Positions 710 through 4,885 of a stretch of DNA of 64,000 bases are shown piece by piece. The stretch is from Nitrospirota bacterium (lineage in GTDB: Bacteria; Nitrospirota; Thermodesulfovibrionia; UBA6902): assembly GCA_016215115.1 (NCBI GenBank), contig JACRLN010000024.1:35337-99336 (forward strand), written 5' to 3'. The notes below the pieces were generated by a model. The model was not told where the DNA came from and did no database searches. It worked only from the letters and a program-made list of their open reading frames with translations. The translations under genes and the position numbers were made by a program. Within the stretch, counting starts at the first letter, position 1. Each line of letters opens with the position of its first letter.

Positions 710-831
710 TGTGGAATAGAGTTAACGCATTGATACATACAAGACATCCTCTTGCGAGGCAAAGAAATATCTTAAGGATAGGTTTATTGGGAAGGCTTGA
801 CATTGGAAGACAAGAGTAGTATATTGGTAGT

Positions 832-1062
832 ATGAAAGTTAAGACATCTATAACTCTTTCAGAAGACCTGATTCACAGCATTGATGAGAAAGTTGGTAAG
901 CAGAAAAACTTATCGGAGTTTATTGAGAAGGCAGTATGGGATTTCATTGAAAGACAGGAACGAAAGAAAAGAGACCTGAAAGACCTTAAGATACTCAATA
1001 AAAAGGCTGAGAAACTTAACAGAGAAGCAGAAGATGTTCTGTCTTATCAGGCTGATTTATGA
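832..1062 (+). CDS. ribbon-helix-helix (CopG/MazE-like) antitoxin
   Basis: 76 aa. N-terminal beta-strand/RHH-like start ([19 protein letters not shown]) and a charged C-terminus. Its stop overlaps the start of the downstream MazF-like gene by 4 bp (ATGA). Confidence 0.55.
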
Positions 1063-1385
1063 GACGAGGCGAGCTTTATCGCGTGCATAAGGGAACGCCT
1101 CATGATCCTAAAAAGTTTCGTGTATTTGTCATAGTAAGCCGCCAGGTGCTTATTGATTCAAGGCTCTCAACAGTAATCTGTGCGCCGATTTATTCAAGTC
1201 ATGACGGCTTATCTACTCAGGTAAAAGTCGGTATTGAAGAAGGTCTGAAACACGACAGCAGTATCCACTGTGATGAACTTGTCAGCATCCCAAAGTCATT
1301 ATTAACCTATTATGTAAGTTCTCTTTCTCCTGAAAAAATGCAGGAACTGAATGACGCATTGGGAGTTGCGTTAGGTTTACATTAG
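1059..1385 (+). CDS. mazF: MazF/PemK-family mRNA interferase toxin
   Basis: 108 aa with PemK/MazF hallmarks (GELYRV ... PHDPKKxRxFVIVS ... [10 protein letters not shown] ... CDELVSIPK). Translationally coupled to the upstream RHH gene. Confidence 0.65.
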
Positions 1386-1895
1386 GCAGCACACCCACGC
1401 CCACTCAAACAGCGTAATTCCAGTGTAACAGGCAATAGTCCAGTAAACATTGCCTATAATCAAGCTGCCCGTGAATATCTTCCAGTCTCTTCCACTCATG
1501 CCGTTGAATTTGCCGTGGCGCATATAGGCAGTGGTAATGAACGGGTCGAATTTTATAGATAAAAACAGGAACACTACCGGAACGCTCTTTTTCATGATCC
1601 ACGTAGTCAACCGCCCTATTCTTTTGCCGCCCTCATATCCTTTGATTCCTTTTATCGCCTCAATGCCGAGCCAATCCTTTTTTGACCAGTCGTAGAATTT
1701 CATAGACAGGATACAGACTATAAATGAAAGAACTGTCATCACAATGCCGCCCTTGAGAATGCCGAATTTATAAATGATATAAGGATAAAGAACGTAACTG
1801 AAAGCGCCTCCCATCAGACCAAGAGCGGTTATGCCGATAGTTAATTCAGACATTCTGCCTTTATAGGTCAGGACTTTTTCGATAAACTTGTTCAT
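1377..1895 (-). CDS. hypothetical multi-pass membrane protein
   Basis: 172 aa with 4-5 predicted hydrophobic helices and no recognisable motif. Confidence 0.4.
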
Positions 1896-1938
1896 GCTAT
1901 TACCCTCTGAAAGAGGGATGAAAGGAGATTTTACAGAA

Positions 1939-3273
1939 TTATTTCAATCTATTAATCCGCTGCAAACATTTGTTCACTTCTTCCTCCAGATGCACTGGAT
2001 AACACCGCCAGTATTTATCAGCAGCTTTATCCGAAGGCAGTAATTGTACTACTAATGGTTTAACGCCAAAATGCTTTATTACCTGTTCATAGGCAGGCAT
2101 AACAACTGTGTTTAAAAATATTTCTTCTTCTTTTGACGTGACAAAGTTCTCAAAAAGGACTCCGTGACATATAAAGAGGGAAAGAAAATATTTATAGTAT
2201 TCTTTTGCCTTTTTACCGTGTGTTTTATACCATGATGAAGCATCATATATATCAATAGTCGGCAACCCCGATTTTAATAACCTGTGATGAAAGTCAACAA
2301 GATTCTCACCAAAGATCGTCTTAATTTCGTTTAACATTTTCTTTTCAGCCGTCATAAGGTCGATGATTTTTCGGTAGTGAAATATCATATGCTCTTTTCC
2401 ATTTCTTCTATCAAGAAAAGGCATCTTTCCCAGAGCGACCTTGTCTGCATTTCTTGTACAAAACTTATCCTCTAAATATTCCCAACCAAGTGGTTTGAGA
2501 TTTGTCTTGTTAGCTAACCCCTGAAAATGCATATTTTCAATATTAGATGTCATTATATGTCTAAACAGGACAGCTCTTGGTTCTTTTTTCAATGCTTCAG
2601 GTATTTCACCTAAATAATCCAAAACCTTCTTACTGAGTGATACATTATTCCAACGTTTCCAAACTTCTACTTTTGCTTCTTCAAGAGATGTATATATGCC
2701 CATTATCTCTTTATGCTGAGAATTCTGTTTATTCGTTGCCGGGTTGTAATATATCGCTTCAATATAATCCGCCGGTTCTTCATGATTGTAATAACGCCAC
2801 CTTTCAACCCTTCTAATCTGAGTAAACAGATATTCTTTATTAAAAACTTTTTGAATCACCTTACTTAATCCATTACTGACTCTTGCATGCATTGAAAACT
2901 TGTTAACTCCAAATCGTTTCTCCGCTTCATCCCTCATTTTATAAAGCATTCTGGAAAAACCACTTCCTTTTTGAAATTCAGGAAGTATTACCAAAGTTTC
3001 AACATAATATCTTCCGGAATCTTCTTTCATCTCAGGATCATCTTCCCCTATTTCGCAAAAAGCTTCATTATGAGGGATTGCGAGGAGATAGCCCGCTGTC
3101 TTTCCATTATCCTGCAGAAGAATATTTATGTTCTTATCTTTTTCAAGCATACTGCCGTAATATTCCTTTTCATCGTCATATGTCCAGCCATTAGGGAATG
3201 CCTTGCCCCTGACAAGTATAATCTCTCTCAGCGCCTTCTCATCAAAGCAATTTAGAACTTCAACTGTAAGCAT
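1939..3273 (-). CDS. GNAT N-acetyltransferase domain fused to a C-terminal domain of about 290 aa of unknown function
   Basis: 444 aa. The N-terminal 150 aa have a GNAT motif A (LPEFQKGSGFSRMLY). The C-terminal part has no motif I can assign. Divergently transcribed from the XRE regulator. Confidence 0.6.
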   Translation of the reverse strand: MLTVEVLNCFDEKALREIILVRGKAFPNGWTYDDEKEYYGSMLEKDKNINILLQDNGKTAGYLLAIPHNEAFCEIGEDDPEMKEDSGRYYVETLVILPEFQKGSGFSRMLYKMRDEAEKRFGVNKFSMHARVSNGLSKVIQKVFNKEYLFTQIRRVERWRYYNHEEPADYIEAIYYNPATNKQNSQHKEIMGIYTSLEEAKVEVWKRWNNVSLSKKVLDYLGEIPEALKKEPRAVLFRHIMTSNIENMHFQGLANKTNLKPLGWEYLEDKFCTRNADKVALGKMPFLDRRNGKEHMIFHYRKIIDLMTAEKKMLNEIKTIFGENLVDFHHRLLKSGLPTIDIYDASSWYKTHGKKAKEYYKYFLSLFICHGVLFENFVTSKEEEIFLNTVVMPAYEQVIKHFGVKPLVVQLLPSDKAADKYWRCYPVHLEEEVNKCLQRINRLK

Positions 3274-3478
3274 AGTTTTAGCGTTTATACCAGTAAAGAG
3301 ACTTTTTATTAATTATTGTGATGGGAGCTATTGTTCTAATAGATATAATTTAAGCTCGATAATAGCCCTAATGAATACAATTCTATCCCCAATAAGAACT
3401 TATTGTCAATAAAATAGTTCTTACTAAGCCGTTCATATTTTGTTTCTTTAAAGGGTATTTTTGAAAGGAGAAATAAAT

Positions 3479-3796
3479 ATGAACGAAAAGAAATTAATAG
3501 GACGACGGATTAAAGAGTTAAGGAGAAGTAAAGAATTATCTCAGGAGAAGCTCGCAGAATTGGCAGAAACAAGCCCTAATTATCTAAGCCGTATGGAGCG
3601 AGGCACGGAAAACCCCACGCTTGACATGCTCATAAAACTCTCCAATGCCCTTGAAGTGGAAATGTGGGAGATATTTGACTTCGGTCATGTCACAGAGCGC
3701 AAGGCTCTGAAAGAGTCCCTCCAAGCATTCCTCAAAACCGCAGACGAACCTACCCTCCGCCTCGCCCTGAAAATCATCAGAGCAGTTGCGAGATAG
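3479..3796 (+). CDS. XRE-family helix-turn-helix transcriptional regulator
   Basis: HTH_XRE signature (LIGRRIKELRRSKELSQEKLAELAETSPNYLSRMERG). AAGGAG ribosome-binding site upstream of the ATG at 3479; the ORF track began at an upstream TTG at 3461. Confidence 0.7.
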   Translation: MNEKKLIGRRIKELRRSKELSQEKLAELAETSPNYLSRMERGTENPTLDMLIKLSNALEVEMWEIFDFGHVTERKALKESLQAFLKTADEPTLRLALKIIRAVAR

Positions 3797-3860
3797 AATA
3801 GTTTTAGTCTTCTGCTCATTCGATTTAATAAATATGCTACAATTAAACAACTGGAGGTGT

Positions 3861-4106
3861 ATGATGCCGACAACAAAAAAGACATTTTATCGAGAACCTA
3901 ATGATACATATTTCAGAGAGCATTTATCTGAATTTGTTAAAGAACACGGCGGCGACTATGTTGTCATTGCAGGCGGACAATTAATAGGATTTGCCCGTAA
4001 GGATAACATCTCCTCACTTATGAAGAAAGCACGGGAAATGTTCCCTGCCGATATACCAATGTTATCTCCCATACCACGAGAGGAAGAATTAGAGTGCATT
4101 CTCTAA
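3861..4106 (+). CDS. small hypothetical protein, partner of the retropepsin-like gene
   Basis: GGAGGTG ribosome-binding site precedes the ATG at 3861 (MMPTTKK). About 81 aa. Its 3' end overlaps the next gene by 13 bp. Confidence 0.5.
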   Translation: MMPTTKKTFYREPNDTYFREHLSEFVKEHGGDYVVIAGGQLIGFARKDNISSLMKKAREMFPADIPMLSPIPREEELECIL

Positions 4107-4501
4107 TATTCCCCTACCAGTTAATAAATAAAAGGCATATTCCAGTAATCCCTTTAATTCTTCATGGTTCTCGAAATACAAAAATAAGAACAGAGGCATT
4201 TGTTGATTCCGGCGCAACATTCAGTATTTTTAATGTAGATATTGCAAAAAGTCTGATGCTCAATCTCAAAAATGCACGTGAACAGTTTTTCGTAGTCGGA
4301 GACGGCAGCTTCATACCTGCAAAGGTTATAAAAATACCGGTTGAGATAGGCAACGAAAAAATTATCTCAGATATTGCCTTTTCTGAAAAACTGAATATCG
4401 GCTTTAATTTGCTCGGCAGAAAAGGAATATTTGAATATTTTGATGAAATAGCTTTTAATGAAAAAGCAAAAGAAGTTATTTTTAGATGGAAAGCGAGATA
4501 G
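4094..4501 (+). CDS. retropepsin-like (clan AA) aspartic protease domain protein
   Basis: Contains the aspartyl-protease active-site signature FVDSGATFSIF (D-S/T-G-A) followed by the hydrophobic-Gly pattern. GTG start overlaps the upstream small gene. Confidence 0.6.
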   Translation: MHSLIFPYQLINKRHIPVIPLILHGSRNTKIRTEAFVDSGATFSIFNVDIAKSLMLNLKNAREQFFVVGDGSFIPAKVIKIPVEIGNEKIISDIAFSEKLNIGFNLLGRKGIFEYFDEIAFNEKAKEVIFRWKAR

Positions 4502-4507
4502 TAAACT

Positions 4508-4885
4508 ATGCACCCATATAAACGTTCAGCAAGGGTCGGTGATTTAATACGGGAAGAAATCGCTGACATTATATTGAATAAGATCAAACACAAAACACTC
4601 GGCTTCATTACAGTTACCGGAGCAAAGGTTAGCGATGACCTGAGAAATGCAACAGTATTCCTAAGCGTTCTTAATAGCGAAGACGCGGACAAGACAGTGC
4701 GGAAACTCACTGAATCATCGGCTTTTATCAGAGGCGAACTCGGCAGAAGGCTGAAGATGAAGTTCGTCCCGTCTCTTACTTTCAGGATTGACGAGTCAAT
4801 TCAATACGGGATGAAAATTGACAAATTACTCAATAACATTAAATCAGAAAGGAACGCACCTGACGAAGATGAAGATCTCTTCTAA
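4508..4885 (+). CDS. rbfA: ribosome-binding factor A
   Basis: 125 aa. RbfA-like sequence (RVGDLIREEIADII ... ITVTGAKVSDDLRNATVFLSV) in the conserved position after infB and before truB. Confidence 0.85.
   Translation: MHPYKRSARVGDLIREEIADIILNKIKHKTLGFITVTGAKVSDDLRNATVFLSVLNSEDADKTVRKLTESSAFIRGELGRRLKMKFVPSLTFRIDESIQYGMKIDKLLNNIKSERNAPDEDEDLF

Follow-up and report, generated by a model that had tools for sequence, protein, structure and literature searches.

Two small overlapping genes in a 64,000-nucleotide stretch of DNA from a Nitrospirota bacterium (GenBank assembly GCA_016215115.1, contig JACRLN010000024.1, positions 35,337 to 99,336 of the forward strand; hereafter, the window) encode a protein of the DUF5678 family and a protein related to the aspartic proteases of retroviruses (retropepsins). 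We found that these genes travel together through bacteria and archaea as an essentially obligate, horizontally mobile pair, and that decay of the pair is one-sided, in that the protease gene is broken or lost while the DUF5678 gene (hereafter, the partner) stays intact. Our reading, in which we place about as much belief as doubt, is that the pair is a toxin-antitoxin (TA)-like cassette, with a cytoplasmic aspartic protease as the presumed harmful effector and the DUF5678 protein as its putative neutraliser. This reading is supported because the cassette is mobile, occurs in several copies per genome, lies beside other TA and restriction-modification genes, and decays on one side only. The parts of the cassette, numbered by amino acid (aa) residue and by nucleotide (nt) of the window, are as follows; the promoter and Shine-Dalgarno (SD) entries come from a reading of the sequence.

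3835..3843, + strand: TGcTACAAT, candidate extended -10 promoter element of the cassette
3853..3857, + strand: GGAGG, putative SD sequence of the partner gene, 3 nt before the ATG at 3861 and 6 nt before the ATG at 3864
3864..4106, + strand: partner gene, DUF5678 family, 80 aa (81 aa from the ATG at 3861), proposed neutraliser or antitoxin
4080..4084, + strand: GAGGA, internal SD-like sequence of the protease gene, inside the partner's conserved P-R-E-E-E codons
4094..4106, + strand: 13-nt overlap of the partner stop with the protease start (translational coupling)
4094..4501, + strand: retropepsin-like aspartic protease gene, 135 aa, GTG start, proposed toxic effector
4205..4216, + strand: catalytic motif D38-S-G-A41 (D38, G40 and A41 invariant in the family alignment)
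4298..4309, + strand: flap-tip motif G69-D-G-S72 (V68, D70 and G71 invariant)
4409..4420, + strand: L106-L-G-R109, the retropepsin 'hydrophobic-hydrophobic-Gly-Arg' motif (G108 and R109 invariant)

Both open reading frames (ORFs) lie on the + strand where an earlier, sequence-only reading of this DNA had placed them, with a gene of about 81 aa overlapping a 135-aa gene by 13 nt. The partner gene opens with a tandem ATG-ATG (3861/3864), and the second ATG is favoured as the start because homologues begin MPTT... at the second Met. Although the NCBI annotation names both products 'hypothetical protein' (partner, MBI5098842.1; protease, MBI5098843.1), they are real genes and not chance ORFs, because they have hundreds of homologues and low ratios of nonsynonymous to synonymous substitution rates (dN/dS), and because the pair with its 13-nt overlap recurs in other genomes. 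The protease is read in the -1 frame relative to the partner, and 10 nt 5' of its GTG start lies the SD-like stretch AGAGGAAG (4078-4085). In 43 of 64 loci, an SD-like tetramer made of the partner's conserved PREE[DE] codons precedes the protease start, and 29 of the 51 confidently placed protease starts were non-ATG codons (GTG 24, TTG 5, ATG 22). From this arrangement we infer that translation of the two genes is coupled and yields more partner than protease. A constraint at the nucleotide level must account for part of the conservation at the partner's C-terminus, because the SD sequence and the overlapping MHS... codons of the protease are located there. Upstream of the cassette, a sigma-70 scan, which demands a -35 element, did not pick up TGcTACAAT; TGaTAAAAT stands at the matching place in two other loci (L006 and L004 in our numbering, used below), whose remaining upstream DNA is unalignable. 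A search for an autoregulatory operator found none: there is no inverted repeat upstream of the cassette, and conservation of the upstream DNA stops at the -10-like element.

Judged by its modelled fold and its motifs, the 135-aa protein is a genuine retropepsin-fold protein of the retropepsin-like clan. Its AlphaFold2 (AF2) model had a predicted local distance difference test score (pLDDT) of 90.2, and a Foldseek search of the PDB with this model returned as top match APRc of Rickettsia conorii (5c9f; template modelling (TM) score 0.73 over about 134 columns, sequence identity 19%), followed by dozens of proteases of the human, simian and feline immunodeficiency viruses (HIV, SIV and FIV) at E values of 1e-5 to 1e-4. 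The family profile, searched against the PDB, matched the retroviral-protease-like domain of Ddi1 with DSGA aligned (E=0.004). The window protease was below the cut-off in three Pfam models (PF13975, 21.1 vs 28.2; PF13650, 19.6 vs 24.3; PF09668, 17.9 vs 26), and PF13650 (Asp_protease_2) was matched by 27 of 30 diverse relatives at E<=0.01, with a best E value of 7.5e-8. The best NCBIfam match of the window protease was TIGR03698 (clan_AA_DTGF), but its score of 20.3 bits falls below the cut-off of 57.35 and leaves it outside this subfamily as curated. The retropepsin signature FVDSGATFSIF (residues 36-46), on which the sequence-only reading had based its assignment, is thus borne out by the modelled fold, by the structural matches and by the profile matches of relatives; the DSG protein aligned best to retropepsin-type proteases (Asp_protease_2, Ddi1, APRc and HIV-1), and no other credible family was found.

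The residues expected of an active retropepsin are conserved among the homologues, of which 251 were found. Invariant in the protease alignment were D38, G40 and A41 (DSGA), V68, D70 and G71 (VGDG), and G103-F-N...G108-R109; D-S-G-x was present in all 62 intact proteases, the flap motif GDG[SGN] in 53 of the 62, and the GR of the LLGR motif in 50, with GM in its place in a Bipolaricaulota subgroup. This GM subgroup (GFNLLGMD) comprises L049, L050, L053, L058, L060 and L068, from Bipolaricaulota, Desulfobacterales and related loci; some members carry DSGC, DSGS or DSGP for DSGA, and the partner and the 13-nt overlap are kept. The change from G-R to G-M may reflect an altered dimer interface or an altered specificity. 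In the model, the flap-tip motif lies between strands 62-67 and 73-85, and, compared with HIV-1 and other retroviral proteases and with Ddi1, about 25 extra N-terminal residues form additional strands. Presumably, two copies of the protein build the active site as a homodimer. The protease showed neither a transmembrane nor a signal segment; it has an isoelectric point (pI) of 9.6 and is predicted to be soluble and cytoplasmic, and its dN/dS of about 0.09 indicates purifying selection. The sequence-only reading called stand-alone retropepsins uncommon in bacteria; those of this family are not very rare, with 374 clusters (at 50% identity) at E<=1e-10 and 1,852 at E<=1e-3 in an exhaustive profile search, and the best 150 of the 1,852 representatives were all stand-alone proteins of about 130 aa or fragments.

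The partner, for which 176 homologues were found, scored 22.9 bits against PF18929 (DUF5678), 0.3 bit short of the threshold of 23.2; a precomputed PF18929 match is recorded for most of the 120 listed homologues, and we treat the window partner as a DUF5678 member at the family level. Its AF2 model (pLDDT 87) consists of a disordered N-terminus, alpha1, a beta-hairpin, alpha2, beta3 and a short C-terminal helix of lower confidence, that is, a compact, well-folded domain that is conserved along its whole length and appears, as modelled, to be a small alpha/beta fold without a solved relative. The closest structural matches of this model were DUF5678-annotated pandoravirus proteins, which were also its best matches among viral models in BFVD (A0A2U7UG46, A0A2U7UD66 and S4VV29; TM score of the best, 0.58). 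Most conserved are a W/F-x-x-H-F-x-E-L-V helix, a G-K-[YW]-[VI]-A-[VI] segment and the C-terminal tail P-R-E-E-[DE]-x-x-C-[IL]-L. The protein is acidic (pI 5.6 in the window), is under purifying selection (dN/dS about 0.04), and has no recognisable DNA-binding domain or signature.

To describe the pair across genomes, one genome of each GTDB species was searched with sequence patterns and tblastn; this gave 79 loci, all in metagenome-assembled genomes (MAGs; the genome set). Among 65 full-length protease ORFs in this set, 63 were preceded by a same-strand ORF ending at the protease start, and all 63 upstream ORFs were homologous to the window's small protein (jackhmmer E values of 1e-14 to 1e-36). 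The two exceptions sit at contig ends and are uninformative. One of them, L012 (1-600), has at the contig edge a second, partial protease gene in direct repeat, joined to the 3' half of the partner gene, with protease residues repeated at positions 4-66 and 269-421. This appears to be either an assembly artefact or a tandem rearrangement; the locus was rejected as a case of an intact protease with a truncated partner and left out of the statistics. Co-occurrence across genomes, on which the sequence-only reading had staked its two-gene module, was therefore complete: the partner adjoins the protease in 63/63 informative intact protease loci from more than 20 bacterial and archaeal lineages. 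The bacterial loci come from Nitrospirota, 'Deltaproteobacteria'/Desulfobacterota lineages, Binatia, Omnitrophota, Bipolaricaulota, KSB1, WOR-3 and Zixibacteria, as well as Ignavibacteria, Planctomycetes, Spirochaetes, Acidobacteria, Chloroflexi, Thermotogae and Dependentiae; the archaeal loci come from Woesearchaeota, Methanophagaceae, Thermoplasmata, Methanobacteriota and a 'Halobacteria' bin. The overlap was exactly 13 nt in 44 of the 63 loci and 1, 4, 26, 34, 43 or 46 nt, or a short gap, in the others, and in 57 the protease was read in frame -1 with respect to the partner. The two proteins diverge in step with each other (r=0.88), the partner being somewhat more divergent (mean pairwise identity, 0.38 vs 0.45).

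From the partner's side also, the pairing appears to be exclusive. Of six diverse DUF5678 proteins that were looked up, none was encoded together with another type of protein. An intact retropepsin gene followed two of them, its start wrongly predicted by the gene finder; a 49-aa N-terminal remnant followed another, two stood by themselves, and the last lay at the end of its contig. Solo DUF5678 genes were seen in L085-L087 and L090. The remnant belongs to Candidatus Argoarchaeum ethanivorans (L088/L089, 3001-3353), in which a 49-aa ORF, MKFPYLKFRGKLAPIVLIELKGREWVSYDA..., overlaps the end of a DUF5678 gene by 4 nt and is the N-terminal stub of an archaeal-type retropepsin cut just before the catalytic motif. 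This locus, a clear case of a retained partner and a decayed protease, adjoins a ClpB-like AAA+ gene.

The pair decays on one side only. In the genome set, 11 loci combined a full-length partner with a frameshifted, truncated or internally deleted protease (L021, L045, L048, L051, L054, L067 and L074-L078). A metagenome set, anchored on the partner, comprised 70 loci with at least 400 nt of downstream sequence, all of one subfamily and 84-91% identical; the protease was intact in 49 of these, disrupted in 15 and missing in 6, and hence broken or gone in 21/70. An intact partner beside a broken or lost protease was thus found at 32 loci in both sets together, whereas the reverse state, an intact protease with no intact partner, was found at 0/63 informative protease-anchored loci. 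Expressed as probabilities, a protease was broken given an intact partner in 0.30 of the metagenome set and 0.15 of the genome set, and a partner was broken given an intact protease in at most 1/64 (Fisher's exact p=3e-6). From gene length alone, neutral decay would be expected to place about 35% of first disruptions in the partner. Even when only distinct disruption patterns were counted (about 20-26 events), p was about 1e-3 to 1e-4. Such one-sided decay is what a toxin and its antidote predict, since a cell would survive the partner alone but not the protease alone; it is not predicted by a harmless cofactor-dependent enzyme or by a substrate-enzyme pair.

Mobility of the cassette is evident from its settings. 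The rbfA/infB context of the window copy is unique to the window and absent even at the 86-91% identical copies L006-L008, and a functional link of the cassette to rbfA, infB or truB (ribosome biogenesis) was rejected for this reason. Close copies become homologous only from about 30 nt before the partner gene onward, where an extended -10-like element of the form TGnTAnAAT stands; therefore, the moving unit is about 670 bp long. MAG117 carries 3-4 copies (a degenerate and a further copy at L007, plus L008 and L024), and two are present in each of several other MAGs. Type I restriction-modification operons host some copies in the gap from hsdS to hsdR, where HicB-like, UPF0175/DUF3368 and DUF2281 genes occur as well; another copy follows directly after a DUF433/DUF5615 pair, and other neighbours include PIN, DUF2283, Csx3, AbiEii-like ATPase and RhuM genes. 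Altogether, 119 different Pfam families were found among 150 scanned neighbours. A third component, either the XRE-family gene that precedes the window cassette or some other neighbour, was rejected, given that no neighbour is conserved with the pair. A phage origin was likewise rejected, as only 1 of 2.9 million viral contigs carries the pair; this 44-kb contig (L092 4681-5417; IMG/VR UViG_3300009538_000031) has an intact DUF5678 and protease pair.

We propose the following scheme for how such a cassette might work. A self-contained unit of about 670 bp, in which a dedicated promoter precedes the DUF5678 and retropepsin-like genes, would give one mRNA, from which the acidic DUF5678 protein would be translated first, from a strong SD sequence and an ATG. 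The basic, cytoplasmic protease would follow by translational coupling, from a weak GTG start inside the last codons of the partner, and the partner would be made in excess because the protease is supplied in this way. The partner would then bind the protease and neutralise it stoichiometrically, in one of two ways: its conserved acidic-hydrophobic C-terminal tail may fill the substrate cleft of the protease, or it may prevent the homodimerisation that a retropepsin needs for its two-Asp active site. The lower model confidence of the tail is as might be expected for a segment that folds upon binding. If the partner were lost or outpaced, the protease dimer, now free, would arrest growth by cutting at least one essential protein of the cytoplasm; loss of the cassette, stress and possibly phage infection could be the triggers. 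In its most specific form, namely that the pair represents a new TA or abortive-infection class of bacteria and archaea, in which a cytoplasmic retroviral-type aspartic protease is the toxin and DUF5678 is a retropepsin-inhibiting fold that acts by blocking dimerisation or by placing its C-terminal tail in the cleft, we hold the proposal slightly more doubtful than otherwise.

Several considerations weigh against the TA-like reading or soften the statistics behind it. Toxicity of the protease and its binding by the partner are inferred from gene sequences, as are inhibition, the target and the trigger. Some broken proteases are the same event sampled again (e.g., L144, L145 and L149-151), so that independent events are fewer than loci, with about 10 disruption patterns and up to 6 losses in the metagenome set and 11 disrupted proteases in the genome set; frameshifts in MAGs and metagenomes can also be assembly errors. 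Partners in broken loci have similarly low dN/dS, which may reflect the history before the break and not continuing selection. One clade is repeatedly flanked by genes for ABC substrate-binding proteins (15 of 150 neighbours), for which shared ancestry is tentatively favoured, a housekeeping link or a conserved insertion site being the other options. This clade, marked by 'MDKDDLWIVEHF', comes from Binatia and Deltaproteobacteria MAGs (L017, L018, L020, L026, L028, L030, L033-L035 and related loci), and the neighbours belong to PF04392. Finally, neither protein matches a full system in PADLOC, and the partner matches nothing in it.

Obligate adjacency, co-divergence and translational coupling would equally be expected of an enzyme and its cofactor, and the pair might accordingly serve non-toxic regulated proteolysis, with DUF5678 as an obligate cofactor (a chaperone, a 'pro-domain in trans', an activator or a substrate adaptor) in some dispensable physiological processing. 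The lack of a DNA-binding domain in the partner agrees with such a role, known cytoplasmic bacterial retropepsins such as RimB serve ordinary protein processing, and the Glu-rich tails that RimB and RloA cleave (bioRxiv 10.1101/2025.03.18.643919) recall the conserved Glu-rich C-terminal motif of the partner. However, an intact enzyme beside a broken cofactor gene would be expected at times, and it was seen at 0/63 loci against 32 for the reverse; moreover, extreme patchiness, multicopy genomes, unrelated contexts of near-identical copies and frequent pseudogenes typify selfish cassettes, not housekeeping genes. We therefore regard a cofactor role as unlikely, although it deserves to be taken seriously. 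The small protein has also been considered as the substrate or precursor of the protease (a pro-peptide or a released peptide signal), or as the first half of a fusion made by -1 frameshifting as in gag-pro; we find this family of explanations very improbable. The -1 frame and the conserved 13-nt overlap are superficially like retroviral gag-pro, and the partner's C-terminal tail is conserved, but a slippery X_XXY_YYZ heptamer occurs in only 5/63 loci and not in the window, no fused homologues were present among the best 150 of 1,852 representatives, and on these grounds the frameshift fusion was rejected. In addition, the overlap holds a start codon and an SD sequence for independent initiation, the partner is a compact domain conserved over its whole length and not a leader with a hypervariable core, and no modification or export genes accompany it. 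We give hardly any credence to a catalytically dead retropepsin-fold binding protein or to chance or artefact ORFs: the window protein does fall under every curated family threshold, and NCBI labels both proteins hypothetical, but the catalytic Asp and DSG are kept in 62/62 copies, as are largely the flap and GR motifs, dN/dS is 0.04-0.09, homologues number in the hundreds, and both AF2 models are of high confidence. The artefact version is refuted by conservation, homologues and low dN/dS.

Abortive infection, or phage defence, is a functional sub-case of the TA-like reading and not a different mechanism; the other candidate role of such a cassette would be addiction and stabilisation. A phage would remove or titrate DUF5678, or deliver a trigger, and the freed protease would kill or arrest the cell or cleave a phage protein. 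Copies embedded in type I restriction-modification operons, and Csx3, AbiEii-like ATPase, RhuM and PIN genes among the neighbours, point in this direction, as do small retropepsin proteins reported to adjoin type III CRISPR loci in Sulfolobales (PMC3973734). There is also weak similarity to the PADLOC candidate PDC-M52B (11 of 30 members; best E value, 7.5e-6), and the window protease weakly matches PDC-M08B (E=0.005). On the other hand, the PADLOC similarity is probably only at the level of the fold, the partner has no PADLOC match, and 0/34 partners matched any A component of PDC-M52 or PDC-M08, so that the pairs are not members of either system. Most neighbourhoods, given the variety of Pfam families in them, are not defence islands, and the window copy itself sits in a ribosome-biogenesis operon. 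A dedicated role in defence thus strikes us as rather improbable.

Returning to the TA-like reading, the pair behaves as type II TA systems do in all genomic respects that we examined, except for DNA binding and autoregulation. Like MazEF and PemIK, it consists of two small, adjacent, co-oriented genes with overlapping frames and the presumed antidote first, which encode an acidic and a basic protein and are kept as a unit (63/63 loci; 13-nt overlap in 44/63). Similarly, it is mobile, patchy and multicopy, is spread with other TA, restriction-modification and defence genes, and includes orphan 'antitoxins' and decayed 'toxins', the presumed toxin never being found intact without its presumed antitoxin. 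Unlike those systems, it has a partner fold without a solved relative, no DNA-binding antitoxin domain and no detectable operator for autoregulation, and toxicity and neutralisation are proposed functions. Accordingly, the TA-like module envisaged in the sequence-only reading stands as far as mobility, multicopy occurrence, TA and restriction-modification neighbours and one-sided decay are concerned, and falls short as a textbook type II system in that the partner has no DNA-binding domain. Known TA toxins are RNases, kinases, acetyl-, ADP-ribosyl- or nucleotidyl-transferases, gyrase poisons and similar proteins, and we know of no characterised TA toxin that is an aspartic protease.

Outside TA systems, the cassette may be compared with several proteases. 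In the staphopain-staphostatin and SpeB-Spi pairs, a small inhibitor encoded in the same operon guards the producer's cytoplasm from its own protease, which is the role that we propose for the partner. Those proteases, however, are secreted cysteine proteases, the inhibitor gene is downstream, and the pairs are not mobile addiction-like cassettes, whereas the window cassette has the small gene in front and encodes two proteins that are predicted to be cytoplasmic. APRc corresponds to the soluble domain of an autotransporter-processing protein embedded in the outer membrane. As the best structural match (PDB 5c9f, 5c9b and 5c9d), it resembles the window protease in being a single retropepsin domain of about 130 residues and of bacterial origin, but the two share 19% identity, and the window protein is without a transmembrane or signal segment and always accompanied by its DUF5678 partner. 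With HIV-1 and other retroviral proteases (MEROPS A2) and the Ddi1 domain, it shares the fold, the D-[ST]-G-A loop, the Gly-rich flap hairpin and the C-terminal hydrophobic-hydrophobic-G-R motif; it differs from them in the conserved Asp at its flap tip (GDGS) and its N-terminal extension, and it stands outside any polyprotein or ubiquitin-like/UBA architecture. RimB and RloA of Pseudomonas are stand-alone retropepsin-fold dimers, RimB being cytoplasmic, as predicted for the window protein, and RloA secreted (bioRxiv 10.1101/2025.03.18.643919). They belong to a different sequence family, their Pfam family is not matched by the window protein, and their genetic partners are the RimK ATP-grasp protein, RloB and RloC; neither system contains DUF5678. 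A parallel between their cleavage of Glu-rich tails and the partner's PREE[DE] tail is speculation by analogy. Archaeal and bacterial ORFs of the COG5550 and TIGR03698 (AF_0612) type, about 120-135 aa long with a D-[ST]-G motif, were described as functionally unknown in 2009, when prokaryotic stand-alone clan AA peptidases in general were called little known (PMC2642776). The window protein is similar in length and motif, and TIGR03698 is its best NCBIfam match, but it lies outside curated TIGR03698, and we found no partner gene reported in the literature for COG5550 or TIGR03698.

In the window, the gene order is infB - DUF503 - [RHH + PemK/MazF - membrane ORF - GNAT-like 444-aa ORF - XRE HTH - cassette] - rbfA - DHH phosphoesterase - truB. 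About 3.8 kb of accessory genes (710-4507) thus lie between DUF503 (392-709) and rbfA (4508-4885), splitting an otherwise conserved infB-rbfA-truB operon; their GC content (0.34-0.43) is similar to that of the flanks and gives no compositional distinction. The description of this islet as rich in TA genes in the sequence-only reading was accurate, as it holds, between infB/DUF503 and rbfA, a canonical TA pair and a gene for an XRE-family helix-turn-helix (HTH) protein. The TA pair, 2.5 kb upstream of the cassette, consists of a ribbon-helix-helix (RHH; CopG-like, 76 aa) gene and a PemK/MazF (108 aa) gene (832-1385, + strand; 4-nt overlap at 1059-1062). MazF homologues (44-50% identity) were also found a few hundred bases upstream of the pair in L017, L101-L104, L110, L120 and L134, so that MazF-type and DUF5678-protease cassettes co-occur repeatedly, at no fewer than 8 loci. 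The XRE HTH protein (111 aa; 3461-3796, + strand) is encoded by a gene that ends 65 nt before the cassette, and it matches PADLOC models for HTH proteins, restriction-modification 'control proteins' and CapH-like proteins; the gene is probably an independent regulator or an orphan antitoxin, because it is not conserved with the cassette at other loci. Of the remaining accessory genes, the 444-aa ORF (1939-3273, - strand) has a weak N-terminal match to GNAT acetyltransferases (E 2e-4), its C-terminal two-thirds being uncharacterised, and it is followed by a gene for a 172-aa multi-hydrophobic protein without a family match (1377-1895, - strand); together, they may be another accessory or conflict module. 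Downstream, the longest ORF of the DHH-family phosphoesterase (TTG at 4818) would overlap rbfA by 68 nt (4818-4885), and the true start is probably further downstream.

Our literature searches, which covered DUF5678, retropepsins in TA or anti-phage settings and the candidates PDC-M08 and PDC-M52, found nothing on the DUF5678-retropepsin pair and no paper on DUF5678 in this context, and, as far as we know and as far as the searchable literature shows, an aspartic protease as the toxin would be a chemistry without precedent in TA systems. Our confidence is evenly divided as to whether the cassette is TA-like, with a new class of effector and a new partner fold. The cassette is compact (670 bp), widespread and previously unannotated, and the one-sided decay statistic can be applied to any conserved pair of genes to ask, by computation alone, whether one member behaves like a toxin. 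If the proposal is true, this would be the first TA-type pair with an aspartic protease as the poison, and hence a new toxin chemistry inside the cell. The partner would then be a natural protein inhibitor of a retropepsin, whose mode of action, either as a dimerisation block or as a pseudo-substrate, could be of use in designing inhibitors and in tracing the evolution of retroviral-type proteases. It would also give a function to DUF5678 and to much of the prokaryotic stand-alone retropepsins, which have been called uncharacterised since at least 2009 (PMC2642776).

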